64,000 nt of DNA, taken from the IMG/VR virus record IMGVR_UViG_3300042894_007218; one strand, written 5' to 3'. Origin of the DNA: an uncultured virus (IMG/VR IMGVR_UViG_3300042894_007218) (taxonomy: Duplodnaviria; Heunggongvirae; Uroviricota; Caudoviricetes). A model generated the notes under the pieces. It did not search any database, was not told the origin of the DNA, and was given only the letters and a program-made list of their open reading frames with translations. The translations under genes were made by a program, and so were the position numbers. Positions 11,940 through 64,000 of the stretch are shown one piece after another. Position 1 is the stretch's first letter. Each line of letters opens with the position of its first letter.

Positions 11940-13391
11940 ATGTCAAAATTTAACCAAACATTACCAAAACAAAAAACACTAACTGAAAACTTAGCTGGTG
12001 GTCAAGCTTACTCTCAATCTAGTGAGTTAGCACTTGTATCTTTGTTATTGACTTCTTTTGTCAATGACCAATTTTATAGAGGAGCTAAAGATACACTTCA
12101 AGATTTAAAGAAGTTATCTGAGAAAGTTAAAGACAAAGAGTTTGTCGCTAAATCTGCTATTTATGCTCGTGATAAGTTTGGGATGCGTAGTGTAACTCAC
12201 GCACTTGCGGCTGAATTAACTTCTCAGTTGAATGGTGCTGAGTGGGGTAAAGACTTTTACAATAAAGTTGTTGTAAGAGTTGATGACATGACTGAAATTC
12301 TTTCTTATTACTTAGCTTACAAAACCGAAAAAGACAACCCTAAGTTTCCAAACTCTTTGAAAAAAGGATTTGCTAAGGCTTTTGATAAATTTGATGGTTA
12401 TCAGTTGGCTAAGTACAAAGGAGAGAACAAAGATGTTAAGTTAGTTGATATTGTTAACTTAGTTCACCCTGTTCCAACTGGAAAAAATAAAGAAGCTTTA
12501 GAACTTCTTGTAAAAGGTGAGTTGAAAAACACCGAAACTTGGGAAGCTAAACTTTCAGCAGTTGGTCAGGTGGCTGAGTCCGAGGAAGAATTAGCCGATA
12601 TGAAGTCAAATGCTTGGTCTGAATTAATTAGCTCAAGAAAATTAGGTTATTTTGCACTTCTAAGAAACTTAAGAAACATTATTACTCAGTCTCCTGGGTC
12701 TGTAAAGGCGGCTTGTGAAATGTTAGTCGATGAAAAATTGATTAAAAACTCACGAGTTCTTCCTTTCCGTTTTGCAACTGCTTATGATGAAATCAACAAG
12801 ATTGGTTCATCCAAAGAAGTTAGAGATGTTTTGGTAGCTATTAATGGCGCACTTGAAGTTTCTATTCAAAACGTTCCTAAGTTTGATGGTGAAACTCTTG
12901 TGGTTATGGATGTTTCTGGTTCTATGATGGGTAGAGCATCTGAAATTGCTTCTCTTTTTGGGGCTGTTTTAGCAAAAGCAAATAACTGTGATGTTATGAC
13001 TTTTGCAACTGATGCCAACTACAAGTCATACAATCCTTTGGATTCTGTAATGTCTATTAGAAACAGTTTTAAGTATTCGGGCGGTGGAACTAATTTCAAA
13101 GCCATTTTTACAAAGGCAAACAAAAAGTATGACCGTATTATCATTTTAAGTGATATGCAAGGTTGGATTGGTTATACTACACCAGCATCTGAATTTAAAT
13201 CTTATAAGAATAAATTCGGGGCTAATCCTTTTGTATATTCTTGGGACTTAGCGGGGTATTCAACACTTCAATTTCCTGAAAGTAGTGTTTTCGCGTTGGC
13301 CGGGTTTAGTGATAAGGTTTTTGATATTATGTCTTTATTAGAGACTGATAAGAAAGCACTTTATAATGAAATAAAATCTATACAACTTTAA
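11940..13391 (+). CDS. rsr: Ro60/Rsr-like TROVE-domain RNA-binding protein with vWA domain
   Basis: NLAGGQAY, FDGYQLAKY, TWE, ALLRNLRNI, LPFRF, vWA DVSGSM, GGT, SDMQ. Confidence 0.92.
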   Translation: MSKFNQTLPKQKTLTENLAGGQAYSQSSELALVSLLLTSFVNDQFYRGAKDTLQDLKKLSEKVKDKEFVAKSAIYARDKFGMRSVTHALAAELTSQLNGAEWGKDFYNKVVVRVDDMTEILSYYLAYKTEKDNPKFPNSLKKGFAKAFDKFDGYQLAKYKGENKDVKLVDIVNLVHPVPTGKNKEALELLVKGELKNTETWEAKLSAVGQVAESEEELADMKSNAWSELISSRKLGYFALLRNLRNIITQSPGSVKAACEMLVDEKLIKNSRVLPFRFATAYDEINKIGSSKEVRDVLVAINGALEVSIQNVPKFDGETLVVMDVSGSMMGRASEIASLFGAVLAKANNCDVMTFATDANYKSYNPLDSVMSIRNSFKYSGGGTNFKAIFTKANKKYDRIIILSDMQGWIGYTTPASEFKSYKNKFGANPFVYSWDLAGYSTLQFPESSVFALAGFSDKVFDIMSLLETDKKALYNEIKSIQL

Positions 13392-13923
13392 AAGTGAAGC
13401 CTTTGTGGTGTGGTCTTAATCCATTTAAGACCATGCTAATTTTGGGCCTGTTTAGGTTTAGTTTCTCTGAACATTCTTTTATAGAGTCGAATGTTCCTAT
13501 TAATTCATTGTCTTTATAACATTCAATTTTTATTGACTTATACTCTTTAAATGCTATAGCTGCTTTTTTTGGTGGTTTTCTACCTTTTAAAGTTTTTCTT
13601 ATTTTCTCTTTTGTTTCTTCTGATATTTGATAGCAATCACCACCTTCTCTTATATTAGTTAAATCATAATCTTTATTATATTGATTTATATAATATCTTT
13701 CCCAATAATTGACATCACCACTGTTACATTCTTTTACTATTTCCAATATTGGTTTTTTATTTTTATCTAATAGAAACTTTACCCAATTACATTTATGATC
13801 ATTTCTTCTCTTTGATTCTGATATGTGTCTTCTATATCGAACTTTTGGATTCACTGATTGCCCAACATATCTAACATCATTAGTTATTGAACATTTTAAT
13901 ATGTAGATATAATGTTTTCTCAT
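13378..13923 (-). CDS. GIY-YIG homing endonuclease with NUMOD-like DNA-binding tail
   Basis: YIYIL...RYVGQS...R, E..YI, LTN; SEETKEKIR; FDSIKECSEKL. Confidence 0.85.
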   Translation of the reverse strand: MRKHYIYILKCSITNDVRYVGQSVNPKVRYRRHISESKRRNDHKCNWVKFLLDKNKKPILEIVKECNSGDVNYWERYYINQYNKDYDLTNIREGGDCYQISEETKEKIRKTLKGRKPPKKAAIAFKEYKSIKIECYKDNELIGTFDSIKECSEKLNLNRPKISMVLNGLRPHHKGFTFKVV

Positions 13924-16194: not shown

Positions 16195-17880
16195 ATGCCG
16201 GTTACTTATAGTTTAAATGTTGGAACAATAACAGAATCTTTTCGAAAAGCTGATATTTTTACAGTATTACAAGATCTTCCAGATAACACACAAAAAATGA
16301 TATCACCTCGAGATGTCAGAGATGCGTTTTTGACAACTTGGGCTACTTCAGTTTTTAAAGTAACAACACCTAATAACTTATCTAATTTAGAATATATTGG
16401 AATAGATACTGGAAATCCAAATGATAGAGATATCAAAAAGAAAATTCTATTAGGTAAAAGAAGTTTTGGTAATTTGGATGTAATGTCAAACTCACTACTA
16501 CAAAATAGCGATGCTGATATTTTTATCTATAATACAAAACCTGATTCTGTTGCTCAAAATTCAACTAAAATGGCAATTTTGTCAGGTACTAGTTCCGCAT
16601 TACATATCTATGCTCCGTATTTAGAATCTTATGCAACCGGATCGATAGTTGACTTTAATATTGTTAACCCATCTTTATCTGGTGGTGCTATAAACTTATT
16701 CTCATCTGCTGGTAGAGTTTCAATTAATGGAATTGTATTTCCTACTGCTCAAGAAACTGGTCTATCAGCATCAAATGGTAGAATTTTAAGATACTCAGGA
16801 ACATATCCATCTGGATATTTAAGATGGGATGATGCTACGTTAACTGTTACAAGTATAGGAACTCCTGGTATCACCACAAGTATTTTTGGAAGTCCTGTTT
16901 TAGTAAACGGTCAATCATTAGAGTTTGTAGATAACTCTTTGGTTCCAGTTACAATTGGTGGAGTTACACAAAGTAGTTCTTTTCCTCAAGACTCTTTTAC
17001 AGCTGGTGGTTTTACAACTCCTGGTAGTGGTCAAAACTGGCCGTTGACTGAGGTACTAAGAAAGGTTCTTTATCCATATATTGAGCCTGTTTTACAGTTA
17101 AGTGTTTACAACACAGCTACTGGTACAACCTATGCTGAAGTTGGAACAACTATTAGTGTAAGTGTAACTTTTTCTGTAACTACTTATGCAAGAGATAATA
17201 ATGAATATATTGTTCAACATTTGGTTAAGGAGTATCAAAATTCAGGAACAAACAGCCTTTATTTTTCCTCAGTGACTTTTAGTGATATACCAGGTAGTGT
17301 TACTTACTCAATTTTTACTTATTCGAGATATGAAGCTACAATTTCATCACCAGAAATTCAATTAGCAGTTTCAACCGAGCCTAATCCTTTACTTGTGTCA
17401 ACTGCGTCTTTTGGTCCTTTTTCTGATACAGGTGGTGGTTTTTCTTTTTCCACAAGAAAGACTATAAACTTTATAGCACCTGTTGTTGGTTCATTTGAAA
17501 GTTTCACTTTTTCTGGTGCAAGTAGTAGTGCGGGTGTTAGAGATATACTAATCAGTAATACAGTACAAAAAATAATTCAGCCATACAATGGTGGTTCTCA
17601 ATCTTTTTACCTGGCTGTTGCTGGTTCTGGTTATTTGTATTTTGCTTATCCACAAAGTTATGGTTACTTAAATTACATTAAAGATCCAAATGGATTTGTG
17701 TTACATGATGTTAATTCTACACTTTATTCGGCTTTTACTTATTCTGTTACTGCTAGTACAAGTGTTATGGTATCTTCTACACCGACCGCTCCTTATACTT
17801 ATTATGGTACATACATTGTTTATAGAACTATAGCGACTTGTAGTAATTCGATGGCTGCGCCTTTTGAACTAATATTTTAA
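16195..17880 (+). CDS. Virion structural protein (S/T/G-rich); paralog of 17883
   Basis: Shares LPDN.QK.ISP.D.RD, YIG.DTGNP, YNTK.D, LR..(L/I)Y.Y and YF.YP..YG.L with the next gene. Confidence 0.7.
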   Translation: MPVTYSLNVGTITESFRKADIFTVLQDLPDNTQKMISPRDVRDAFLTTWATSVFKVTTPNNLSNLEYIGIDTGNPNDRDIKKKILLGKRSFGNLDVMSNSLLQNSDADIFIYNTKPDSVAQNSTKMAILSGTSSALHIYAPYLESYATGSIVDFNIVNPSLSGGAINLFSSAGRVSINGIVFPTAQETGLSASNGRILRYSGTYPSGYLRWDDATLTVTSIGTPGITTSIFGSPVLVNGQSLEFVDNSLVPVTIGGVTQSSSFPQDSFTAGGFTTPGSGQNWPLTEVLRKVLYPYIEPVLQLSVYNTATGTTYAEVGTTISVSVTFSVTTYARDNNEYIVQHLVKEYQNSGTNSLYFSSVTFSDIPGSVTYSIFTYSRYEATISSPEIQLAVSTEPNPLLVSTASFGPFSDTGGGFSFSTRKTINFIAPVVGSFESFTFSGASSSAGVRDILISNTVQKIIQPYNGGSQSFYLAVAGSGYLYFAYPQSYGYLNYIKDPNGFVLHDVNSTLYSAFTYSVTASTSVMVSSTPTAPYTYYGTYIVYRTIATCSNSMAAPFELIF

Positions 17881-17882
17881 AT

Positions 17883-19406
17883 ATGTATACTTATAGCTTA
17901 TATAATTCAACATCATATCAATCTACGAGTTTATCACTAAGTGGTACACCATCTTATTTTGAAACTGTATTAGATACGTTACCTGACAATTTACAAAAAT
18001 TGATTTCACCAAAAGATTTAAGGGATATGACACTCTCTTTATGGAGTGATGTTATATTCAAAGAAACATCTGCATCTGGTTCTACAATTGGATATATTGG
18101 AGTTGATACTGGAAATCCAACTGGTTCTGATATAAAAAGTAAAATGTATTTTGGTAAAAGATATTTTTCAGGTACTTATTCACCTGGAGATCAATATGCT
18201 ATAATTGCAACAGCATCTTTAAATAGTGATTTAGATTTGTTTTTTTATAACACAAAAAGTGACTTGATTGATAACGATATAACACGTATAAGTTTTTTAA
18301 CAGGCACTGCAATTTCTAACTTTGAAAATATGCCATATCTACAAAGTCAATTTGTTACAGGTGTTACTGATTCATTATCTTTAGATTTTGTAAATTTAAT
18401 CAGTGATGTAAATGTAACTAATACTTATGGTGATATTACTATAGGTGGATTTAGTGGTTCAGCAACTGTGAGCTTTGCTTTTCCAACGCCTTCTGAAAGC
18501 TTTGCATCTGCCTCGAATGATAGAGTGTTGAAGTATGATGAGACTATACAAAAATTATATTGGGATGATATTATTTTTCCTACTTTAAGTACAGTCGGAA
18601 CAACTGGTTCTATGTTACAGATGTATGGTAATCCGTTTTTAGTTAATGGATATTCAATAGAGTTATATGATACAAGACGTGTACCAATTGTGATTGGCGA
18701 TATTACATATGGTGCTACTTTTGGTAATATGGCGGCATCTGAAGTTTTAAGAAGAATAATTTATGATTATCTACCACCAACTTGCTCAGCTCAGTTACTT
18801 ACTCCTTATGTATCTGGTTATGTTGAAGTGGGAACTTATCCAACACCAACAGTTCAGTTTACAATTAATAAAAAAACTTTACCTACAATTGCTACAACTT
18901 TGACAAATATGATACCTGGAGTTTATGGTGCTATAAATGTTCCTCAATATACTTCAGTGACTTCAACATCAAATGGTATTGTAATTTCACCGATTACAGC
19001 ATCTACCACTACGTTTACTGTTCAGGTTGGAGATGGAATTGGAATAGGAACCGCTTCAACGACTATCACGGGAGTTTATCCTTATTTTTATGGTTTTAGC
19101 TCTTTATCTACAATGACTACTGTAGGATTAGGTTCACTAACAAAGAAAGTAGAATCTTATGGTGATAAGATTTATGATTACACTGGTAGTGGGAATATGT
19201 ATTTTATTTATCCTAAAGTCTATGGAACACTATCTAACATTTATGATAGCTTTGGAAATACTTGTTCTGCATCATTCTCTACACCATCTTCTCAAATATT
19301 TTCATCACCGACAGGTTTATGGGCATCTGAGGAGTTTTGGGTTTATCAATATAGTAGTGCTCCTACAATTGGTCTTCCATCAGAAAATTTTGAATTCAGA
19401 TATTAA
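17883..19406 (+). CDS. Virion structural protein; paralog of 16195
   Basis: Same motif series as 16195; beta-rich composition. Confidence 0.7.
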   Translation: MYTYSLYNSTSYQSTSLSLSGTPSYFETVLDTLPDNLQKLISPKDLRDMTLSLWSDVIFKETSASGSTIGYIGVDTGNPTGSDIKSKMYFGKRYFSGTYSPGDQYAIIATASLNSDLDLFFYNTKSDLIDNDITRISFLTGTAISNFENMPYLQSQFVTGVTDSLSLDFVNLISDVNVTNTYGDITIGGFSGSATVSFAFPTPSESFASASNDRVLKYDETIQKLYWDDIIFPTLSTVGTTGSMLQMYGNPFLVNGYSIELYDTRRVPIVIGDITYGATFGNMAASEVLRRIIYDYLPPTCSAQLLTPYVSGYVEVGTYPTPTVQFTINKKTLPTIATTLTNMIPGVYGAINVPQYTSVTSTSNGIVISPITASTTTFTVQVGDGIGIGTASTTITGVYPYFYGFSSLSTMTTVGLGSLTKKVESYGDKIYDYTGSGNMYFIYPKVYGTLSNIYDSFGNTCSASFSTPSSQIFSSPTGLWASEEFWVYQYSSAPTIGLPSENFEFRY

Positions 19407-19424
19407 AAATTTTATATATAGTTT

Positions 19425-21062
19425 ATGCCGATACAAATAATAGATAACTTCGAGTTGAATGTACAAAAGCCAATAGACAATAGATTTGTTGTTGGTGGTA
19501 CTTCATCTTTTTATAACACTAGATTTGCAATAGTTAATCCTTATAATGGATTGAGAATTTGGGATTTAAACGATAATCAGCCTTATGTTTATAATGGATC
19601 AACCTGGTCATCTGAAGCTTCTTTGACGACATTACAGGGTACAGGAACGGCTAATTACTTACCTAAATTCAACACCTCAAATTCTGTTGAAAATAGTGTC
19701 GTTTATCAAAACTCCGGAAACATCATAATTGGAACAACTTCTGGTTCTTCGAGTGATAGATTAGTGGTTGATGGAAATATTAGGGCAAATTCAGGTTATT
19801 ATTACTATGGTTCAGGTCTTTATTTAACTTCATTAAATGCTACAGAAATTACTACCGGAATTCTTAATTTAGCAAGACTTTCAATTAGTAGCTCGTCTTC
19901 TGGATGGATTATGTCAAGAAATGCTTCTACTGCAACTTGGACCAATCCAACCCAACTTACTGTTGGTACGGCTTCTGCTTTAGCAACAACAAGAACTCTA
20001 TGGGGTCAAAACTTCAATGGTACTGCTAACGTTACTGGAAATATTAATATTAATGGTAATGTGTTGAATGTCTATACTCTTCAATTTAGAAATAATGCAT
20101 TGCCTACTCCTGGTACTTTAAATGTCAATTGGTTAGGTGCTTCTAATGTGTCAAGTACACTTAATATACCAGGTTTCAGTGGGGGCTTAAGCCCTACAAG
20201 AACCATGGCGCTTTTAGAACAGCAACAAACTTTTACAAAAGTAAATACATTTACAGATCATACTAATTTAGATACTGTTCAGGTTGCGGGTACTTCTTCA
20301 TTTTTTGATAAGATGAGAGTTTTTGTGACTGAAACAATTAATTTTGCACCCCCAATCGGACCAGTTTCTATTACCGCAAATCCACTTAATGTTCTATGGG
20401 GTGGTATATCTATTGGTGCTACTACAAGTAACGGTTCTCCTTATATAACGGTAAATGGTGGCTATACTTGGTTTGGTGATAATGATAGTGGTATGTTTAG
20501 AGCTTCAACAAGTGGTTCTACTATGTCAAGCATTAGATTCTTGAATGATAACAGAATTCAAATGATATTAGGAAATAATATATCACCAACTTACAGCACA
20601 TCAGTTGAACAATATACAACACCTGGTGTAGCAATGATGAGTGTTTTAGATATTTGGAGTATTTCAGATTTTGATGCACTTCCGTTGTTGAGGTGGGTTT
20701 GGTTGGAAAATAATCCATTTGGTGTTAACACAACCGCTATCAGTCTTCCTTATACCAATGATGCTAATGGAACATCTGGACCTGGTGCTGGTTTTGCTCA
20801 AGCTGGTCTCAGTGCTTCTCAATATGATAGAATGCTTATGATATCTACAACTGGTAGAACAGTGGCTTATCCTTATTTAGAGACGGCTCCTGGTACTGGT
20901 GTTTATTGGTTACTTAATTATGTGTGGACAGACTCAACATATCCTTTGATAATACCTGCAGGTAGAAAATGGAAATTGTCAATGTTTAGTATTCCTGCTC
21001 CAAGTGGAAGTACGAATGATGATAAGGTTAGGCTTATTATGTATAAGTATGGAATGAGTTAA
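19425..21062 (+). CDS. Tail fibre-like protein
   Basis: PIDNRFV, GTANYLPKF, RTLWGQNFNGTANVTG fibre-like motifs. Confidence 0.7.
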   Translation: MPIQIIDNFELNVQKPIDNRFVVGGTSSFYNTRFAIVNPYNGLRIWDLNDNQPYVYNGSTWSSEASLTTLQGTGTANYLPKFNTSNSVENSVVYQNSGNIIIGTTSGSSSDRLVVDGNIRANSGYYYYGSGLYLTSLNATEITTGILNLARLSISSSSSGWIMSRNASTATWTNPTQLTVGTASALATTRTLWGQNFNGTANVTGNININGNVLNVYTLQFRNNALPTPGTLNVNWLGASNVSSTLNIPGFSGGLSPTRTMALLEQQQTFTKVNTFTDHTNLDTVQVAGTSSFFDKMRVFVTETINFAPPIGPVSITANPLNVLWGGISIGATTSNGSPYITVNGGYTWFGDNDSGMFRASTSGSTMSSIRFLNDNRIQMILGNNISPTYSTSVEQYTTPGVAMMSVLDIWSISDFDALPLLRWVWLENNPFGVNTTAISLPYTNDANGTSGPGAGFAQAGLSASQYDRMLMISTTGRTVAYPYLETAPGTGVYWLLNYVWTDSTYPLIIPAGRKWKLSMFSIPAPSGSTNDDKVRLIMYKYGMS

Positions 21063-22088: not shown

Positions 22089-22111
22089 TTAATTTTCTTA
22101 TATAATCTTCG

Positions 22112-22306
22112 ATGAAGACCAAATCAGGAGTTAAAATATATTCAAACTCAACAGCCGATAAACTTAGAGATATAGAAGAACAATTAACTAAAATGTTATC
22201 TGAACAATTGGCTAAAGAAATTGACAAAGAAATTTTAAGAAATTTGGGAATTGAGCCAGATAGAAATAAACGAAGAAAAAATTCTATAAATAAAATCTAT
22301 AGATGA
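22112..22306 (+). CDS. Mini-protein resembling a major capsid (gp23) segment
   Basis: IEEQLTKMLSEQLAKEIDKEILRNL; C-terminal RRKNSINKIY. Confidence 0.6.
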   Translation: MKTKSGVKIYSNSTADKLRDIEEQLTKMLSEQLAKEIDKEILRNLGIEPDRNKRRKNSINKIYR

Positions 22307-22443
22307 CGCCACATAAAGAATATACAAAAGAGGAAAGAAAAGATATGGATAATCATCTTAGATCAATCGGTATTCTATTTAGAGTAATTTTAAGAATTGA
22401 TAAAATTAAAAGATTATTTAATGTTAATAGGGAAGAAAAGTAG
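22303..22443 (+). CDS. 46 aa mini-protein (not in ORF track)
   Basis: MTPHKEYTKEERKDMDNHLRSIGILFRVILRIDKIKRLFNVNREEK; ATGA overlap with the previous gene. Confidence 0.6.
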   Translation: MTPHKEYTKEERKDMDNHLRSIGILFRVILRIDKIKRLFNVNREEK

Positions 22444-22678
22444 TTTAGAACCTGGTTACGTTTTTGCTCCTTATATACCAATGACAACATCACAAGTTAT
22501 AGTTGGATACGGTTCTAAAAATGCAATCAGAAAGAAAAAGATTAATAAGATATTTGATTTAGGGTTAGATATTAAAGAAGAGTTCTCACCAAGTAAATCA
22601 ATTATGAGTAGGTACTCTAAAAAAATTGTAAAATCTAAATATTACCAAAATATAGAAATAAAAAAACCCACTTTATAA
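22421..22678 (+). CDS. Mini-protein resembling the major capsid C-terminus
   Basis: MLIGKKSSLEPGYVFAPYIP...FSPSKSIMSRYSKKIV; ATG at 22421 preferred over TTG at 22397. Confidence 0.65.
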   Translation: MLIGKKSSLEPGYVFAPYIPMTTSQVIVGYGSKNAIRKKKINKIFDLGLDIKEEFSPSKSIMSRYSKKIVKSKYYQNIEIKKPTL

Positions 22679-22690
22679 AGTGGGTTTTTT
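22660..22690. terminator. Bidirectional terminator
   Basis: AAAAAAACCCACTTTATAAAGTGGGTTTTTT. Confidence 0.75.
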
Positions 22691-23605: not shown

Positions 23606-25165
23606 ATGAAGAGTTTTCAAGATTTTATAAACGAAGCAACGATTAAAGGAAACTTAGGTGTTCCCGGTGAAGGACCTGAAGGAAGAGACGAAGAGTCTTT
23701 TTTAAGAGGTGTTGAAGAAGAAGGTAGAAGAAAAGCTGCTGGTGATCCAAGACAGATTGGTGGTAGAATGTGGCAGATTTCACAAAGTACTAAATCTCTA
23801 ATCAGAGGTAAAGAAAAAGAAATTGAAAAATTTGCTGAAGAGATAATCAAAGATGTTTATTCTGGCTTTATGGATTCTGTTGAACTAGATCTTCAAATTG
23901 TAAGAGATGGAATGGCCGTGAAGGAATTCATGGATGAAGAGGACGAAAAGAAAAAAGAAAGAAACGAGAAAGAAAAGGAAAAAGCAAAAAAGAAAAAAGA
24001 AGAGCAAAAAGAAGAAAAGGAAAAAGAACCATCTGTAAGAAAATCTACTGATGCTCAACTTAAATTAGAAATAGACAAAAGAAAATTAGCTAATGCAATA
24101 ACTCAAGGTGAGGCAAAAAATACAAAAGAAATAATCCGAATGCCTGAGTGTTTAGATGGACTTAAAAAAGTTTTAGGTGACCGTAATGGTGAAGAACTTC
24201 ATAGACAATTATTAGAATTAACAGAACTAGCTGATAAAATGGATTGGATTATTCCTGTTCAAGCTAAAGCTGATATGATGGAAAGAATGCCTGAAGGTAT
24301 GGCTGGTGCTTGTTCAGTTGATTGGCAGGAAGAAGAAAAAGAAGAAGAAAGTCAAGACTTGGCTCAGAATGTTTTAGACGAGTTGCAAAATTCAGAAGAA
24401 GGTTCAGACTTAAATGATATGAGTGATGAATTGAAAGAGTTGATGTCTTCTGGTAAACCAATTATCAGAGCAAGAGGAGTTGATTTTGTAATGTTAATTC
24501 ACGAAGCTGTGAAGGGAATTTATGAATTGATAGCATCCAGAGGTATTCCTGAAGATACTACACTGGCTTCTAATGTATTTTTAAATACTGAAACGTTCGA
24601 AGATGAGGCTGAAGATTTCAGATATGGTCCGCCAATTGCTGCGGCTCTAAGAGATTTTATCAATGCTAATAGAAAGACTAATCAATATCCAAACGTAAGA
24701 GAATTTGTATTTGGAAAAATGATAGAAATGCCAGCTGAAAGATTCTTAGCACTTATGAAAGAAATTTTAATGAAGACACCAGAGGCTAGAAATCAAGTAG
24801 ATAGATTGATAGATGAGGTTGTATCTGAACTAGAAGGATATGAGAGTGAACTTTCAGACTATGAAATTTCTAAAAGATTTGAACAAGAACCAGAAGGTGA
24901 GTTCACTTCAGATGAAGAAGAATCTGATATTGATAAACTGGTTAGACAAAGTTTAGCGGGTGAAAAAGAAGAAGAAGGTCCTAAAAAATCATATGATGAT
25001 ATGACAATTGCTGAAATTCAAAGAGAAATTGAAAAAGCAGTTGAAGAAGAAAATTATGAATTAGCAGGTGAGTTGACTAAAAAATACCTTAAAGGAGAAT
25101 CTAAGAAAGTTTGGGAAACTGAACTTAAAAGAATAAATGAATTTCATCAAAATAGAAGAAGATAA
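23606..25165 (+). CDS. Acidic putative head-internal protein with a UVR-like C-terminal helix
   Basis: MKSFQDFINE; IQREIEKAVEEENYELA. Confidence 0.65.
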   Translation: MKSFQDFINEATIKGNLGVPGEGPEGRDEESFLRGVEEEGRRKAAGDPRQIGGRMWQISQSTKSLIRGKEKEIEKFAEEIIKDVYSGFMDSVELDLQIVRDGMAVKEFMDEEDEKKKERNEKEKEKAKKKKEEQKEEKEKEPSVRKSTDAQLKLEIDKRKLANAITQGEAKNTKEIIRMPECLDGLKKVLGDRNGEELHRQLLELTELADKMDWIIPVQAKADMMERMPEGMAGACSVDWQEEEKEEESQDLAQNVLDELQNSEEGSDLNDMSDELKELMSSGKPIIRARGVDFVMLIHEAVKGIYELIASRGIPEDTTLASNVFLNTETFEDEAEDFRYGPPIAAALRDFINANRKTNQYPNVREFVFGKMIEMPAERFLALMKEILMKTPEARNQVDRLIDEVVSELEGYESELSDYEISKRFEQEPEGEFTSDEEESDIDKLVRQSLAGEKEEEGPKKSYDDMTIAEIQREIEKAVEEENYELAGELTKKYLKGESKKVWETELKRINEFHQNRRR

Positions 25166-32662: not shown

Positions 32663-33730
32663 ATGAAAAAGTCTAAATTTTTAGAAAAAGCCAGGGAAAA
32701 GCATGGATATAAATATCAATATCCAGACTTGCCGGAAGTTGTTATGCAAAATGATTATATTAATGTTTTATATAATGGTGTTATTTATAGACAAAAAGTA
32801 TTAAAACATTTTAAAGGCAATAGACCAGAGTTGAAAACTGTAAATAAAACCACAGAAGAGTTTATTAAAGAGTCTATTAGTATTTGGGGTGATAAATATG
32901 ACTATTCTATGCTTGAATATAAAAATGCAAGAACAAAAGTTAAAATAATATATGATGGTATAATATATGAACAATATCCAAATTCACATCTAAACGCATA
33001 TCCGGTTGAAGGTTATTTAGATCAAAATGTTTTTATACAAAAGGCTATTAAAAAATGGGGTGATAAGTATGATTACTCACTTGTTAAATTTGAAAATGCT
33101 AATACAAAGGTTGAAATATTATTTAATGGTGATTCATATTATCAAACACCTCACAACCATCTAAAATACGCACCAGAAAAAAGACTATTTAAAAAAACAA
33201 CTGATCAGTTTATTCAGGAATCTATAAAAATACATGGTGATTTTAGGTATTTATATGATAAAGTTATATATAATAACGATAGAGAAAAAGTAGTAATTAT
33301 TTGCCCAATACATGGAGATTTTACTCAAAGACCCAATCAACATCTAAGAGGTGCTGGTTGTTCTAATTGTAATGAATCAAGAGGTGAAAAGGAAATTTCT
33401 AAATTTCTAGATAAATATGATATAAATTATTATAGACAATATAGGTTTAATGATTGTAGAGGTGTTAAATATCCACTACCATTTGATTTCTATATTCCTT
33501 CTACACGGACTTGTATAGAATTTGATGGTGAGCAGCATTTTCTACCTTTATCTTTCTTTGGTGGTCAAGAAGCTCTGGAGAAACTTAAAATCAATGATAA
33601 AATTAAAAATGATTATTGTGAAGATAATTATATCAATCTAATAAGAATACGATATAATCAAATAGATGATATTTGGAGAATATTATATGAAAATTTAAAA
33701 AACTATATAAAAACAAAAAAGACCAGTTAA
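32663..33730 (+). CDS. Putative homing endonuclease: repeated FI..(H/W)GDKYDYS modules plus PD-(D/E)xK/Vsr-like nuclease
   Basis: Three to four repeats, CPIHG..GC..C, PFDFYIP, IEFDGEQHF. Confidence 0.8.
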   Translation: MKKSKFLEKAREKHGYKYQYPDLPEVVMQNDYINVLYNGVIYRQKVLKHFKGNRPELKTVNKTTEEFIKESISIWGDKYDYSMLEYKNARTKVKIIYDGIIYEQYPNSHLNAYPVEGYLDQNVFIQKAIKKWGDKYDYSLVKFENANTKVEILFNGDSYYQTPHNHLKYAPEKRLFKKTTDQFIQESIKIHGDFRYLYDKVIYNNDREKVVIICPIHGDFTQRPNQHLRGAGCSNCNESRGEKEISKFLDKYDINYYRQYRFNDCRGVKYPLPFDFYIPSTRTCIEFDGEQHFLPLSFFGGQEALEKLKINDKIKNDYCEDNYINLIRIRYNQIDDIWRILYENLKNYIKTKKTS

Positions 33731-48894: not shown

Positions 48895-49692
48895 ATGAAA
48901 ATTCTTAAAATATTTGAAGAAAAGTTAAGATATAAAAATTACTCTGAAAGAAGTATAACTTTATATGTTTCTTATTTATCTTTCTTTCTAAAAGAAGAAG
49001 GAATAAAAGACCCTTATCAAATTACTACAAATAGAATAGTAAGTTTTTTGGAAAATAAATCTTATACTTCTATAAGTCAGCAAAATCAATACATAGGTTG
49101 TTTAAAATTATTTGCTAAGTATATACTTAATAAAAAAGATATACACCTATCTAAAATTGAAAGACCTAAATCGGAAAAAAAACTTCCACAAGTTATAGAT
49201 GGAGACCACATAAAAGAACAACTATCTAAAATAACTAACTTAAAACACAAAACTATACTCACACTAACCTATTCAGTTGGTTTAAGAGTGTCTGAGGTAG
49301 TTAATCTTAGAATCGAAGATATTGATTCCAAAAGAATGATTATCTACATTAAAAATGCTAAAGGTAAAAAGGATAGAATAGTTCCTCTTTCTCAAACTGT
49401 TTTGGATTTAATGAGACAATATTGGAAAGAATACAAACCAAAAGAATATTTATTTAATGGTCAATCTGGTGGGAAATATTCCATTCAATCCTGTCAAAAA
49501 ATCTATAAAAAGTATATTGATGAAAGTTCTTCTATACATACATTAAGACATTCCAGCTTCACTAACCTTTTAGAGTCTGGAACAGATCTAAGGATAATAC
49601 AAAAGTTAGCAGGTCACTCCAGTTCTAAAACCACCGAGATTTACACTCATGTTTCAAATCAATTACTAAGTAAAGTAAATTTACCAATTTAA
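48895..49692 (+). CDS. Tyrosine recombinase with SAM-like N-domain
   Basis: GLRVSE, KGKKDR, HTLRH, AGH, IYTHV catalytic residues. Confidence 0.92.
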   Translation: MKILKIFEEKLRYKNYSERSITLYVSYLSFFLKEEGIKDPYQITTNRIVSFLENKSYTSISQQNQYIGCLKLFAKYILNKKDIHLSKIERPKSEKKLPQVIDGDHIKEQLSKITNLKHKTILTLTYSVGLRVSEVVNLRIEDIDSKRMIIYIKNAKGKKDRIVPLSQTVLDLMRQYWKEYKPKEYLFNGQSGGKYSIQSCQKIYKKYIDESSSIHTLRHSSFTNLLESGTDLRIIQKLAGHSSSKTTEIYTHVSNQLLSKVNLPI

Positions 49693-59878: not shown

Positions 59879-62800
59879 ATGTGGGTATATAACAACGATT
59901 ATAAAAAATGGGAAGCCACTGGTGATAAGTTATTATTAACCGATTATGAGTTATTAAAACAAGAATTATCATCAGTTAGATTTTACTCAAAATGTCTAAG
60001 TGGCGCTACATATTTGCCAGTTCATACACTTGATAATATTTATGATATACTTGGTGAATATAAACCACGTAACTGGTATATTAGTACAAATGCTTCACCT
60101 TATAGTAATACTGGTATACCTGCTGAACATGCTGAACCTATCTTTGCTACAACATCGTATGATTATTATACAAAATATTTGACCGAATATGGATTAACTC
60201 TTAAAAATCTATTTACACCCGAAAGATTAATAAAAGACGCTAACAAAAACTACATACTAGTAGATTTGGCCACAACTGAATCATTAGCTGACTTGCCTGT
60301 TTCAAATGATAATAGAATAATTGATGGTGTTAGACTATTAGAAGGACATAGAGTTTTAATTAAAGACCAAATCACAAGAGTTACTTTATTAAGTGCGCAG
60401 AATCCAGATGATTATTTTCTTTCCAGTTATACAGTTGTTCAAAATTTTGGAGCCACTATTGAGTATCAAACAGCAAGTCCTGAAAATGGTATTTATATCT
60501 ATCAAAATGGTCTATTAGTAAGAGAAACAGATTTAGAAGATTATGATGATTGTCGTAGATTTAGTGTTGTTGTTAAGAATGGTGCTAGTAATTTTGATAG
60601 ACAATTTCATCTTGTTAGATTGTTAAATGGGTATTATCCTACAACTTCAAAAAATGAACCAATTCAATTTACTGAAAGTAAAAATTGGTTATTGAGGAAT
60701 AAAGTTGACTACAATAATTTATTTGAGATTAATTATTATGATGTGATTAAAAATCCTACACAATCATATTTTATAGGTGGTATTACTTACAGTATACCAG
60801 AAAGAACAATTGCTATTGGTGAATTTGGTATAATTTTAAATACACAAGAAGGCATTTCAAATATAATTTATAATAAGTATAAAATTAATTTAAGAAGCAT
60901 ATCTCAAACGTCTAAGTTTTATTTTATTTGTGGAGATGATGGATTATTATTAAAAGTAAGAAAACATGATTTTTTTATAGAAAGACTAATTTTACCTACA
61001 ACTAATAATTTAAGATCTGTTTCATTTTTTGATGATTTAAAAGGAGTTGTTGTTGGTGACTTAAATGCTGTTTATGTTACTGATAATGGTGGTGTTAGTT
61101 GGCAAGCACTTAAGATTTCTGCTTTTGATGCTTTTTACTTTACTAAGGTTATTTATTATTCACCTACTGCATTTTTTGCTTCCGGTAACGTTGGTATTTT
61201 TGTTGAATTTAAAAGAGATATTACCGGTTGGACCGCATTTAAAAGAAGAATATCTAGATTCATAGATGATGATGATGAATATTTACTTGTTGATAATATC
61301 AATGATATTTACTATACAACACTAACAACTTGGGGTTTGAGTTACTCTTATTCAACTCAGTCGATACCTGTTGATAAAGCGATGTTATTTATTGTAACTG
61401 ATGACAGTAAGATTATTGTTCATGACATTAATAGTTTTACAAATTTTGATTTTCTTTATTTAGATTTTCCTTCAAAGTATGGTGATATAAGAAATATAAC
61501 TAAAAAGTTTTCAACTAACGAGTTTTACTTTACTGGTATAGAAGAGGCTACTGGTGATACAGGTTTATTTTCTTTTGACTTGTCAAATTTCACAAATATT
61601 GGTGTTGGTAATTCATATTCAAATACTATTTTGTCTACTTTTTCTGCAACTTATAAGTCTGATTTATATGGTAACGAAATTGTTGATTATTTTGCACAAG
61701 ATTTAATAATTGCCGGAAATGAATCACTTTTAAAATCGTCAACTTATTCCACGCCTTTTAACTTTAATGTTTTAGATGTTAATTTTGAAAATAGATTAAA
61801 ATCTAAATTGTTGTTTTTAGATTATGATGCTGGTTCTAAACTTAACTTCTTTACTGATTTTGGTGAATATAGATTGCCAAATTCTTTAACTTTTTCTTTT
61901 ACCGCATCTACTAGTACTTATTTTGATTTTACTCCATTGGTTTATGGTCCGACTGGTCCAAGTTATATGACTCAATCTGAAACAAATTGGATAGATTATT
62001 GGAAAGACAGTCAAATGACATTTGAATATTACAGTCTAAATCCAACAACAGATGCGACTAAAGTTTTAATGACTACAACTTTTTCTTATTCAAGTAATAA
62101 TGCTGTATTCAATGTATCTACTTTTTCGGCTTTCAGAATAAGTTATGATTTTATTCAGACTGGTCAATATTTTCCTGATATAGATGCTATAAAATCTTTA
62201 GCACCTACTATTTCTGACGAAGGTCATAGTAGATTTTATAGCATTGGTCTAACTGCAATATCTGCTCCAACATACTCTTATGACCTTTATTTTTATGATT
62301 ATTTAATGGTTGCTAAGCTACCAACAACATATCCTGTTCAAGTTGGTGATGTTATAAGATTTGATAGTAATGTTGTAGAAGGCAATTTTATTGTTAATAA
62401 ATTAGCAAATTTGTCTGGTGATAATTATGCTTATATGTTCACTGAGTTTGATAATGCGATTCTAAAAGAACTGACGGCATCTTTTTCGATTACATTAACA
62501 AATTTGAACTACTATAATAATTCTACTGAATTATCTGATAGATTTAACTTACATCCAATTTCAAAGGCATATAGTTTAAGTTATGATGCTACTAATTCTG
62601 TTGCTGAAATTTCTACAGAATTTAATAATTTTACATCTTACTATAATTTAGCAACTAATGTAAACACTCATTATTCACAGTTTACAATGTCATACACTTC
62701 CGGATTTTTAAAATTTGGATATTCGCCTACTTATAATCTTTTAGATTACTTAGAGTCAATAAACGAACTGGGTGATCCAAATCCTAAATTTTATGCAACA

Positions 62801-64000
62801 AAAGAGTATTATGCGATGCCTGATTTAAGAGACATTCCAATGCCTGGCCTGAATTCATTTACTTTTAGTGTGGCTTATGTCGATTATAATGGTATGACGG
62901 CTGCTCAGGGTCTTACTGTATCTAATAGACAAGATAATAAAATATTATTTGGGCAACAATTAGAGTTTGAGTGGAATAGTATATTCATTAATACTTTTAT
63001 TGATATTAATTTATATGCAACTTCTTCTGTTACTACAACCGAAAGAGCACTTGTTACAAAAAAATATCGAGCACTTGATGAAAATGGTGAGGAGTATTTT
63101 GTAATTGAATTGCATAAGAGATTAAATTATGCAGTTAATGTACCATTATATAAAATAGACATAATATCTCGAAGAAAGTTGTATCAAATTAGTGATGATC
63201 TACAACAATTAAATCTTATTCAAAGACCTGTGAAATCTAAAGATTACTTAGCTGGATCTGGACCGAATATTTGGTTTGCTGACTATACTCAGTTTGAAAG
63301 AGAAATGAATTTCAAAGTAAATACCGATTCTTATGCTAAGGTTTTATTAAGTGATGTTGATACTTTAGAATCAATCAGTGCTGTTCTTTACACTGATTAT
63401 AAAAACGAATATGCGATGAATGTAACAAGACTTGGAAAAGAAGTGACTGTTCCTATTCTTAATACTGCAAATTTTGCTGGTAATTTATTTATATCTTGTT
63501 CGGAAAAACATGGTTTAAAAGACGAAGAGGGTGTTGTGTTGGAGTTTACGGGTCTTACTGGCTCATCGGCTTTTGTGAATCAACAATATTTCGGATATCA
63601 CCCGATTAAAAAAGTTAATGAGTATAATTTTTATATTAATTTCCCTTATGGTACAGTTCCACTTGTAGGTAATGATGTTGGTTTTGTTAAGTATTATAGA
63701 CAAGATCCATTCTTAGGTTATGAACCAGTTGACTTAATTGATGTTGGTGTTGATAAAAAGGGTAAAATTGCAATAGAACTGACAACGGAAAATACCATAC
63801 AAAGTGGAGCGACTTATAGTTTATCTGGTGTTGATTTCAGTAAATTTAGATTTAGATTAGTCGATGGTTTAAATATTGAAACTCTTGCGGCTAACTTCCC
63901 TTGGATTTATGAGGCCGAGATTTCAGGAGCAGTAATTGGTCAAAATGGTGAGGATTTAGTTTGGTACAAAGGTAGATGGGAATGTGGAAGGTGGTTCGGT
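59879..64000 (+). CDS. Large virion structural protein, truncated by the window end (not in ORF track)
   Basis: ATG at 59879 is in frame with the window end (MWVYNNDYKKW...WECGRWFG); IDGV.L..GHRVLIKDQ..NGIY fibre-like motif and propeller-like TDNGGVSW segments. Confidence 0.8.
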   Translation, partial: MWVYNNDYKKWEATGDKLLLTDYELLKQELSSVRFYSKCLSGATYLPVHTLDNIYDILGEYKPRNWYISTNASPYSNTGIPAEHAEPIFATTSYDYYTKYLTEYGLTLKNLFTPERLIKDANKNYILVDLATTESLADLPVSNDNRIIDGVRLLEGHRVLIKDQITRVTLLSAQNPDDYFLSSYTVVQNFGATIEYQTASPENGIYIYQNGLLVRETDLEDYDDCRRFSVVVKNGASNFDRQFHLVRLLNGYYPTTSKNEPIQFTESKNWLLRNKVDYNNLFEINYYDVIKNPTQSYFIGGITYSIPERTIAIGEFGIILNTQEGISNIIYNKYKINLRSISQTSKFYFICGDDGLLLKVRKHDFFIERLILPTTNNLRSVSFFDDLKGVVVGDLNAVYVTDNGGVSWQALKISAFDAFYFTKVIYYSPTAFFASGNVGIFVEFKRDITGWTAFKRRISRFIDDDDEYLLVDNINDIYYTTLTTWGLSYSYSTQSIPVDKAMLFIVTDDSKIIVHDINSFTNFDFLYLDFPSKYGDIRNITKKFSTNEFYFTGIEEATGDTGLFSFDLSNFTNIGVGNSYSNTILSTFSATYKSDLYGNEIVDYFAQDLIIAGNESLLKSSTYSTPFNFNVLDVNFENRLKSKLLFLDYDAGSKLNFFTDFGEYRLPNSLTFSFTASTSTYFDFTPLVYGPTGPSYMTQSETNWIDYWKDSQMTFEYYSLNPTTDATKVLMTTTFSYSSNNAVFNVSTFSAFRISYDFIQTGQYFPDIDAIKSLAPTISDEGHSRFYSIGLTAISAPTYSYDLYFYDYLMVAKLPTTYPVQVGDVIRFDSNVVEGNFIVNKLANLSGDNYAYMFTEFDNAILKELTASFSITLTNLNYYNNSTELSDRFNLHPISKAYSLSYDATNSVAEISTEFNNFTSYYNLATNVNTHYSQFTMSYTSGFLKFGYSPTYNLLDYLESINELGDPNPKFYATKEYYAMPDLRDIPMPGLNSFTFSVAYVDYNGMTAAQGLTVSNRQDNKILFGQQLEFEWNSIFINTFIDINLYATSSVTTTERALVTKKYRALDENGEEYFVIELHKRLNYAVNVPLYKIDIISRRKLYQISDDLQQLNLIQRPVKSKDYLAGSGPNIWFADYTQFEREMNFKVNTDSYAKVLLSDVDTLESISAVLYTDYKNEYAMNVTRLGKEVTVPILNTANFAGNLFISCSEKHGLKDEEGVVLEFTGLTGSSAFVNQQYFGYHPIKKVNEYNFYINFPYGTVPLVGNDVGFVKYYRQDPFLGYEPVDLIDVGVDKKGKIAIELTTENTIQSGATYSLSGVDFSKFRFRLVDGLNIETLAANFPWIYEAEISGAVIGQNGEDLVWYKGRWECGRWFG

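Follow-up and report, generated by a model that had tools for sequence, protein, structure and literature searches.

Introduction

Phage morons are accessory cassettes composed of a promoter, a gene and a terminator. Among bacterial defense systems, Lit and CapRel are triggered by capsid proteins and Avs by portal proteins. In eukaryotes, microProteins are small derivatives of interaction domains that act as dominant negatives, and among phage satellites, P4 Sid and SaPI CpmB act on the assembly or size of capsids. PLE TcaP (PMC10945586) and SaPIpT1028 Rcm (PMC12409344) are described as further satellite proteins acting on capsid assembly or size. Here, we analyze an array of three overlapping small open reading frames (ORF1–ORF3; positions 22,112–22,678) in a 64,000-nucleotide stretch of DNA from an uncultured virus of the Caudoviricetes (IMG/VR record IMGVR_UViG_3300042894_007218), to which we refer at its full length as the window. 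As judged by sequence comparison, ORF1 is homologous to the spine helix of the T4-type major capsid protein (MCP) and ORF3 to its C-terminal strands, and both carry the same short basic helix, which we term the tag.

The nearest described protein is T4-type Gp23 (PF07068; 6uzc, 5vf3, 8gmo), to two segments of which the products of ORF1 and ORF3 are homologous. Unlike Gp23, these products cover just 28 and approximately 60 of more than 500 residues, score below the family cut-off, and are predicted to have no fold of their own. They also contain a basic helix that is foreign to Gp23, and their genes lie at a distance from that of the MCP.

Results

ORF1 and ORF3 resemble two segments of the T4-type capsid protein

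The sequence-only reading of this stretch had likened the product starting at 22,112 to a helix of the gp23 family and the product starting at 22,421 to the gp23 C terminus, and profile searches recovered both segments at sub-threshold scores. In Pfam, ORF1 residues 20–47 align to positions 169–196 of PF07068 (E-value [E] 4e-4, 20.3 bits) and ORF3 residues 7–38 to positions 302–333 (E 6e-3, 16.4 bits), both under the gathering cut-off of 24.4 bits. For the reverse comparison we used L016, a canonical T4-like MCP of 583 amino acids (aa) from IMG/VR with an alignment E of 3e-24 against T4 gp23 structures. Searched with phmmer against the 1,575 six-frame segments of the window, it matched ORF3 (E 8.9e-8) and ORF1 (E 6.1e-5) and nothing else; a full-length capsid gene is accordingly absent from the window by this search. 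ORF1 is 65% identical to L016 residues 373–398 (E 3e-6 at a database size of 1e6), and ORF3 is 37% identical to residues 512–571 (E 1e-8). By way of L016, the equivalents in T4 gp23 are residues ~283–310 for ORF1 and ~432–478 for ORF3, and ORF1 followed by ORF3 is collinear with the order in the MCP.

Other searches point to the same protein. Searched by tblastn against 50,697 phage records, ORF3 matched 12, and in nine of them the matching region is annotated as a capsid or head gene. Ranking first is the capsid protein of Microcystis phage Mel-JY01 (E 3e-4), and in cultured T4-like phages the match is confined to the MCP gene, at a single place per record. In the ESM Atlas, 23 of 30 matches are Gp23-domain clusters. 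Pfam and PHROG scans of the three ORFs brought out no family besides Gp23 or major head protein. ORF2 had no match in either database, and the ORF2-type family gave no significant alignment to MCPs in hhalign. Given the Pfam and tblastn likeness, the reverse scan with L016 and a tag count above expectation (see below), we consider the original observation confirmed. The features of the array are as follows.

22112–22306, + strand: ORF1, 64 aa; MCP spine-helix fragment with a C-terminal basic tag
22169–22252, + strand: capsid-like helix of ORF1, residues 20–47 (Pfam; phmmer against L016 371–398)
22262–22300, + strand: basic tag of ORF1, residues 51–63, RNKRRKNSINKIY; best-conserved part of the ORF1 family
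22303–22443, + strand: ORF2, 46 aa; looser tag, parent protein unassigned
22393–22419, + strand: tag of ORF2, residues 31–39, the looser variant RIDKIKRLF
22421–22678, + strand: ORF3 from its ATG (85 aa), or from a TTG at 22397 (93 aa); MCP C-terminal strands interrupted by the tag
22517–22555, + strand: tag of ORF3, residues 33–45, a helix in the structure prediction
22099–22106, + strand: TATAAT-like box TATATAAT, 5 nt before the ORF1 ATG; candidate promoter
22661–22690, both strands: bidirectional intrinsic terminator hairpin, 13-bp stem with T runs on both strands; the ORF3 stop lies inside

All three frames are intact, with coordinates and reading frames as originally read. The ORF2 ATG overlaps the ORF1 stop (ATGA), and ORF2 and ORF3 overlap by 23 nt. 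An AlphaFold2 model of ORF3, built from a 105-sequence alignment, has a mean predicted local distance difference test score (pLDDT) of 70.9 and a predicted template modeling score (pTM) of 0.32. The tag helix (residues 33–45) is its sole secondary-structure element, in a block with pLDDT 80–89, and the capsid-like parts are extended. A complete HK97-type fold is not predicted for ORF3 in this model, whose one helix is the non-capsid tag.

On the opposite strand, an ORF of 36–48 aa (22353–22493, −) starts opposite the codons for the GYV.APYIP motif of ORF3 and its product would have a hydrophobic tail. The frame is uninterrupted in each of the five genomes examined (the window, L011, L013, L014 and L015), which may be a mere by-product of ORF3 conservation.

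The tag is a module separate from the capsid protein

The tag has the form R-K-x-x-I-x-K-I-F and is a basic amphipathic helix. Its strict pattern occurs twice in the six-frame translation of the window, in ORF1 and ORF3, against 0.22 occurrences expected from 50 shuffles, and a hidden Markov model (HMM) of the tag scores these two copies at 25.6 and 26.9 bits, with nothing further of note in the window. The sequence-only reading had placed a basic motif in each ORF; this is borne out in strict form for ORF1 and ORF3, and ORF2 has only a looser variant, which becomes RKDKIKKIF in the nearest relative. The strict tag is present in 88 of 96 members of the ORF1 family and in 112 of the 120 listed members of the ORF3 family, all 120 of which have the loose form. 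On an entire 175,660-bp relative, the tag HMM found mini-ORFs only and none of the large proteins.

As originally described, the ORF3 motif sits inside capsid-like sequence, with MCP matches on both sides. In the phmmer alignment, L016 residues 513–539 and 545–571 correspond to ORF3 residues 11–35 and 63–89, with the tag between the two stretches, and 82 alignment columns of ORF3 face 60 MCP residues, an insertion of 22 residues. The tag HMM had no match in eight MCPs, with negative bit scores throughout, and therefore we treat the tag as a separate module. Derivation of the tag from the MCP itself (from the end of the spine helix, the second helix or the N-terminal helix), as gapped blastp and inspection by eye had suggested, was dropped on the same result. 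One caveat to this separation is that the hhalign alignment between family A, a further mini-gene family introduced below, and the clade's own MCP (E 1e-3) crosses the tag.

The position of the tag varies: it is internal in ORF3 and C-terminal in the homologue from the 634,780-bp record LR745206, which has no internal insertion. In the single ORFs P0232 and P0255, a tag connects two pieces in frame. Read from these sequences, the tag serves as a linker between consecutive pieces.

The array is conserved and shows no sign of decay

The array had been taken for repurposing rather than decay, and this stands: each of the two outer ORFs has a large family of similarly small proteins, indels are in frame, and the ratio of non-synonymous to synonymous substitution rates (dN/dS) is below 1. 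We found 96 relatives of ORF1 (43–106 aa, 57%–100% identity) and at least 350 small-protein relatives of ORF3, of which the 120 listed are 82–103 aa long and 72%–98% identical; some of the latter family lie on contigs of up to 629,742 bp. When 1.84 billion representatives were searched exhaustively with ORF3 in HMMER, 71 matches were obtained. Of these, 69 have a length of 33–143 aa, one is a fusion of 241 aa and one a repeat artefact of 2,426 aa. No fused long form of ORF3 emerged from 122 longer-protein candidates apart from one chance match of 198 aa. This result, together with the nature of the longest HMMER matches, rules out a fused or frameshifted long gene.

Indels among the DNA relatives are multiples of three, and at codon positions 1, 2 and 3 of ORF3, respectively, 24, 28 and 43 of 78 sites vary. 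Measured against L075, dN/dS is 0.23 for ORF1, 0.22 for ORF2 and 0.51 for ORF3, the ORF2 value being that of one pair with 10 synonymous and 14 non-synonymous differences. ORF2 has an intact 46-aa homologue in L075–L079, the closest arrays found, which differ mutually by 0–7 bases over 700 and were gathered with ORF1 as anchor. Seven ORF3 residues (G12, Y13, P17, Y18, S63, R64 and Y65) are at least 90% conserved across 105 sequences. The family as a whole is divergent, down to approximately 30% identity, and its size and design are kept.

Two other accounts of this conservation were rejected. A pseudogene or decaying MCP copy does not fit intact frames in 96 and at least 350 clusters, in-frame indels, dN/dS below 1 and the absence of a long form. 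A structured RNA behind the nucleotide conservation of ORF3 has no support in Rfam, where no family reached the gathering level in the ORF3 region and all eight weak matches were confined to the terminator.

The copied segments are those of canonical capsid proteins

Relatives of the window phage encode an MCP of their own, and we use these proteins, as the clade's own MCP, to stand in for that of the window phage. By sequence, the clade's own MCP is a diverged Gp23. The sequence-only reading had implied a likeness between the mini-proteins and this protein. Compared with the MCPs of relatives, however, all MCP-derived mini families are closer to canonical T4-like MCPs. ORF3 reaches at best E 0.4 against the own MCP, versus 1e-8 against L016; ORF1 has no match among the own MCPs; and family A aligns at E 8e-12 to canonical MCPs and at 1e-3 to the own MCP (hhalign). 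The copied segments are 0.59–0.75 identical among three canonical MCPs, in contrast to 0.33–0.36 elsewhere in these proteins, and in the same segments the own MCP is only 0.19–0.29 identical to the canonical ones.

Relatives encode further tagged mini-genes

A scan of relatives with the Gp23 profile found one full-length MCP (557–584 aa) per genome together with several small Gp23-like pieces. Family A (66–71 aa) corresponds to MCP residues 335–389 (hhalign probability 97.5%, E 8e-12), carries the same tag at its end, and passes the PF07068 cut-off with 40.1 bits. It always lies between the same two enzyme-like genes. A 62–65-aa type corresponds to MCP residues 431–470 and also has the tag at its end, and a 165-aa protein is an N-terminal MCP fragment with a basic tail. 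Altogether, five fragment families trace to the MCP core. In distant lineages, MCP C-terminal minis without a tag occur.

Other tagged minis lead away from the capsid protein. One of 61 aa resembles the portal C terminus (PF07230, E 1.9e-4, below the cut-off; PHROG portal, E 2.3e-3) and aligns to huge-phage portals in hhalign (E 7.8e-5, probability 61%); a single-sequence search found no portal in the Protein Data Bank (PDB) for it, and a portal origin is suggestive only. Another (L086 503–706, L087 162–320) has an N-terminal part like an EF-hand loop (EF-hand_7, E 4e-4, below the cut-off).

Two assignments were withdrawn. The 67-aa tagged mini had been considered a protease fragment, for which PHROG gave only E 0.23; it is EF-hand-like instead. 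An MCP origin assigned by eye to the ORF2-, "ARGW"- and "MFV"-type and 59-aa minis, and with it full collinearity between array and MCP, fell on hhalign probabilities below 1% and the absence of Pfam matches.

A gene of ~412 aa always adjoins family A (L023 1736–2992, L024 168–1409, L025 1739–2977); its conserved motifs (...TVHDS...) recall what we take to be those of single-subunit polymerases. Upstream of it is a gene of ~447 aa that is named once in the source annotation as an RNA-ligase-family protein.

Larger and more distant Gp23-like proteins were also seen. Proteins of ~246–265 aa in L028, L029, L030, L036, L037 and L007 match the Gp23 profile at positions ~174–305 (E 3e-5 to 4e-3), and some share the motif ...DPYMK.ND.R... 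with the own MCP; these may be A-domain-like MCP paralogues. In other lineages (L057, L058, L059 and L062), proteins of 89–100 aa combine an N-terminal ...A.EIDKEIL... motif with a C-terminal module ending in ...F.LRW and stand in tandem paralogous arrays. From its sequence, the spine-helix motif seems to be reused beyond the huge-phage clade.

The mini-genes form an exchanged cassette

The position that the array occupies in the window, locus A, lies between a conserved gene for an acidic coiled-coil protein, which is always directly upstream, and a convergent DUF5856 (ferritin-like) gene. The number of different mini-genes at locus A ranges from two to four, and some arrays also contain an inserted ~190-aa gene. 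ORF1-type genes fall into two subtypes, one at locus A and the other elsewhere, convergent with a 199-aa gene; ORF1 of the window has the N-terminal sequence of the second subtype and the position of the first. Family A and the B-type ORF1 genes directly abut the enzyme genes that precede them, beginning at or overlapping their stop codons.

In 8 of 11 locus-A arrays, a T(G/A)TATAA(T/A) box precedes the ATG of the first mini-gene by 4–8 nt. The box 5 nt before ORF1 is therefore a candidate promoter, which would yield a leaderless or short-leader transcript. A generic sigma-70 scan gave sites at no more than shuffle level. MCP genes have a different box ~30 nt upstream and an A-rich leader.

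At the other end of the array, the terminator hairpin is kept in relatives. Three DNA metagenome runs contain contigs that match the hairpin alone within unrelated flanks (loose ends at 22656 and 22690), and in these runs many distinct contigs stack on the 3′ half of ORF3 and the terminator.

ORF3 DNA is ~85%–90% identical among genomes whose upstream array DNA is unalignable. Over 36 pairs from nine loci, ORF3 distance correlates with flank distance at a Spearman coefficient of 0.32, compared with 0.74 for one flank against the other. The flanks of L011 and L044 are nearly identical, but their ORF3 products differ at 24% of residues, and the reverse holds for L011 and L042. In L015 and L045, ORF3 is found in different surroundings. 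Because synonymous divergence (dS) of ORF3 is low relative to the flanks, the ORF3–flank correlation is weak and such reversals occur, we read these sequences as a cassette exchanged among related phages, possibly with an added constraint at the nucleotide level.

Two recurrent elements of the locus deserve mention in their own right. In L011 (1779–2348), the ~190-aa gene separates the ORF1-like gene from the following mini; in L075 (2093–2674), it comes directly after ORF3 and has taken over both the "...KKPTL" end and the terminator. It behaves like a mobile insertion. The hairpin, CCCACTT...AAGTGGG with A and T runs (window 22656–22690), is recurrent in the phage population.

The window derives from a huge phage

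The window has a G+C content of ~30%. Its genes for replication and nucleotide metabolism include those for a DNA polymerase, helicases, PhoH, a UvsX-like recombinase and a ribonucleotide reductase, the last of which shares 84% identity with its counterpart in LR756502, an uncultured phage of 642,428 bp; several homing endonucleases are also encoded. LR745206 gives a DNA match around the mini-gene region. The "Mahaphage" clade is described as including genomes of 634, 636 and 642 kb, with Bacteroidetes as predicted hosts (PMC7162821). The carrier is a Mahaphage-like huge phage, with relatives of up to ~640 kb, and we infer that the LR records belong to this clade. The mini-gene stretch is present in lake and freshwater metagenomes from 16 studies.

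Upstream of the array are putative fiber-like structural genes (16195–21062). Genes for GIY-YIG- and HNH-type homing endonucleases and an integrase-like tyrosine recombinase are located at 13378–13923 (−), 32663–33730 (+) and 48895–49692 (+), and homing endonuclease or recombinase genes of the window are possible drivers of cassette exchange. Shortly downstream of the array, a gene at 23606–25165 (+) encodes a highly charged, E/K-rich protein of 519 aa, unassigned to a family, and the window end cuts off a further ORF, which is longer than 1,373 aa and has no PHROG match (59879–64000, +).

Discussion

We tentatively propose that the mini-proteins are trans-acting mimics that dock on T4-type head proteins and interfere with competing T4-like phages; taken as a whole, this statement seems to us possible rather than probable. 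A capsid-derived segment, predicted to be unstructured when alone, would serve as bait, adding itself by strand or helix complementation to a folding or assembling T4-type head protein, where it would complement or compete with the same segment of that protein. The shared basic helix would give all baits the same effector or anchor, for example one that blocks the next contact or tethers the complex to nucleic acid or an acidic partner. We take the likeliest target to be the assembling heads of rival T4-like phages in the same host, because the baits copy the most conserved canonical motifs and the own MCP has diverged. A bolder version, to which we give less credence, envisions a modular "bait-plus-tag" arsenal in which conserved peptides of head proteins (capsid, perhaps portal) would sabotage rivals, the phage's own diverged capsid protein being immune.

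A number of observations weigh against this proposal, chief among them the strong conservation of the mini-genes and the existence of tagged minis unrelated to the capsid. ORF3 evolves no faster than the own MCP, a rate that would also be compatible with a partner within the virion of this phage or with a conserved factor of the host. Its dN/dS rises to 0.77 in some pairs, and its dS is 0.18–0.66, compared with 0.58–2.6 in flanking genes and 0.47–0.95 in the own MCP, so that part of its conservation lies at the nucleotide level or results from recent exchange rather than from protein function. The ORF2-, "ARGW"- and "MFV"-type and 59-aa tagged minis lack significant head-protein likeness in hhalign and Pfam; together with the EF-hand-like mini, they indicate that the tag is not confined to capsid baits. 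Moreover, the portal-like mini is nearer to the huge-phage portal than to canonical portals. The likeness to Gp23 is itself faint, with ORF1 and ORF3 scoring under the PF07068 gathering cut-off, no PDB chain at E≤10 in a single-sequence search with ORF3, and no full-length MCP at E≤1e-3 for ORF3 among the 1.84 billion representatives. Finally, one metatranscriptome holds contigs on part of ORF3 (depth 0.5–5.2) and none on ORF1 or ORF2; these are contigs only, with possible DNA carry-over, and so cannot be used as evidence of expression.

The same conservation, near the rate of the own MCP, would suit accessory proteins of the phage's own virion, in which case the minis would join its prohead or capsid as cement, internal or size-related proteins. 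On this account, which we think unlikely though far from negligible, the capsid-like segment would add to the sheets or helices of the MCP at special lattice positions and the tag would bind packaged DNA or an acidic scaffold. The low dS of ORF3, like that of the highly expressed MCP, agrees with such a role, as do the acidic coiled-coil gene always found directly upstream at locus A and the fiber-like structural genes close by. However, the fragments resemble canonical MCPs and not the own MCP, and in G003 the MCP (116–117.5 kb), portal (123.6–124.8 kb) and locus A (61–64 kb) are far apart. Family A and B-type ORF1 genes abut or overlap the stops of enzyme genes, and array content differs between close relatives, with no ORF3-like match seen in LR756502, which would be unusual for an essential structural part. 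Somewhat less likely still are anti-defense decoys, peptides that would occupy or mislead immune sensors of head proteins with the tag providing affinity or mislocalization. Baits taken from the MCP and possibly the portal, both immune triggers, would suit decoys, as would the copying of the most conserved motifs and a moron-like architecture with cassette exchange, which is typical of counter-defense genes. A decoy should nevertheless look like the phage's own MCP, which the minis do not, and their sequences are conserved rather than diversifying. Neither ORF1 (gp23 ~283–310) nor ORF3 (~432–478) maps to the region of Gol, the Lit trigger, which we take to be near the N-terminal part of mature T4 gp23, and sensors that recognize a fold are unlikely to bind unstructured pieces of 25–60 residues.

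The tag itself could be the functional part, making the minis small nucleic-acid-binding proteins (in DNA or RNA binding, condensation or regulation) whose capsid parts are baggage or spacers. We rate this on a par with the decoys. It would account for the tag being the best-conserved and sole structured element, for its flexible position, and for its presence on minis that have no capsid likeness; it sits poorly with the near invariance of the seven capsid-like residues of ORF3, and five independent fragment families drawn from the MCP core are hard to explain if the bait is irrelevant. Least probable of the accounts considered is that the array consists of selfish or neutral remnants, captured pieces of a T4-like capsid gene spread by recombination together with the terminator and encoding functionless peptides. 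High nucleotide conservation of ORF3 with low dS and dN/dS reaching 0.77, decoupling of ORF3 from its flanks, several homing-endonuclease genes in the window, and recurrence of the hairpin with other flanks all lend it some credit. Against it stand hundreds of independent assemblies free of stops and frameshifts and with in-frame indels, the excess of third-position variation, conservative amino-acid changes with bait residues nearly invariant, and a family that diverges to ~30% identity at constant size and design.

If their targets are head assembly or capsid sensors, the mini-proteins would constitute a new class of small viral effectors, exapted from fragments of structural proteins and equipped with a common tag. 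They would then provide short natural peptides against the most conserved motifs of T4-type capsids, so that a handful of synthetic genes would suffice to put phage–phage competition or capsid sensing directly to the test. Interference with competing phages would amount to phage-versus-phage warfare through capsid-fragment dominant negatives. The mini-genes occur in hundreds of lake-phage lineages, and sub-threshold "capsid-like" matches on tiny ORFs of huge phages can flag real conserved genes rather than debris.

Within the literature that we searched, this mini-gene family has not been described before: no description of capsid-fragment mini-genes was found there, including in the passages considered from PMC7162821 and PMC7824862, which deal with huge or jumbo phages. 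The ESM Atlas contains several clusters of 78–100-aa viral proteins automatically named Gp23-domain proteins; the capsid likeness has thus been latent in databases, with no discussion found in the searched literature.

The locus shares with morons a compact unit set between conserved genes, a conserved TATAAT-like box and a strong terminator directly after the genes, as well as content and position that vary among relatives and a history decoupled from the flanks. Unlike morons, it is an overlapping array of mini-genes made from structural-protein fragments, and its promoter is only a candidate. The capsid triggers of immunity (Gol for Lit, the MCP for CapRel) likewise involve short capsid segments with an activity of their own; those segments, however, are parts of a full capsid protein sensed by the host and not separate phage genes. 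Closest in mode of action are the satellite capsid-interference proteins and the eukaryotic microProteins, by analogy with the function proposed here, and the mini-genes belong to neither group. Sid, CpmB, TcaP and Rcm are, like the mini-proteins, small accessory proteins, and the latter would similarly act on the capsid assembly of another phage; the former are encoded by satellites, are not capsid-protein fragments, and share no detected sequence with ORF1–ORF3, whose carrier is instead a huge lytic-type phage with its own replication genes. With microProteins, the mini-proteins would have in common a short copy of a segment of a larger protein and, presumably, a non-productive complex; they differ in belonging to another domain of life, in copying segments smaller than a domain, and in the common tag added to them.

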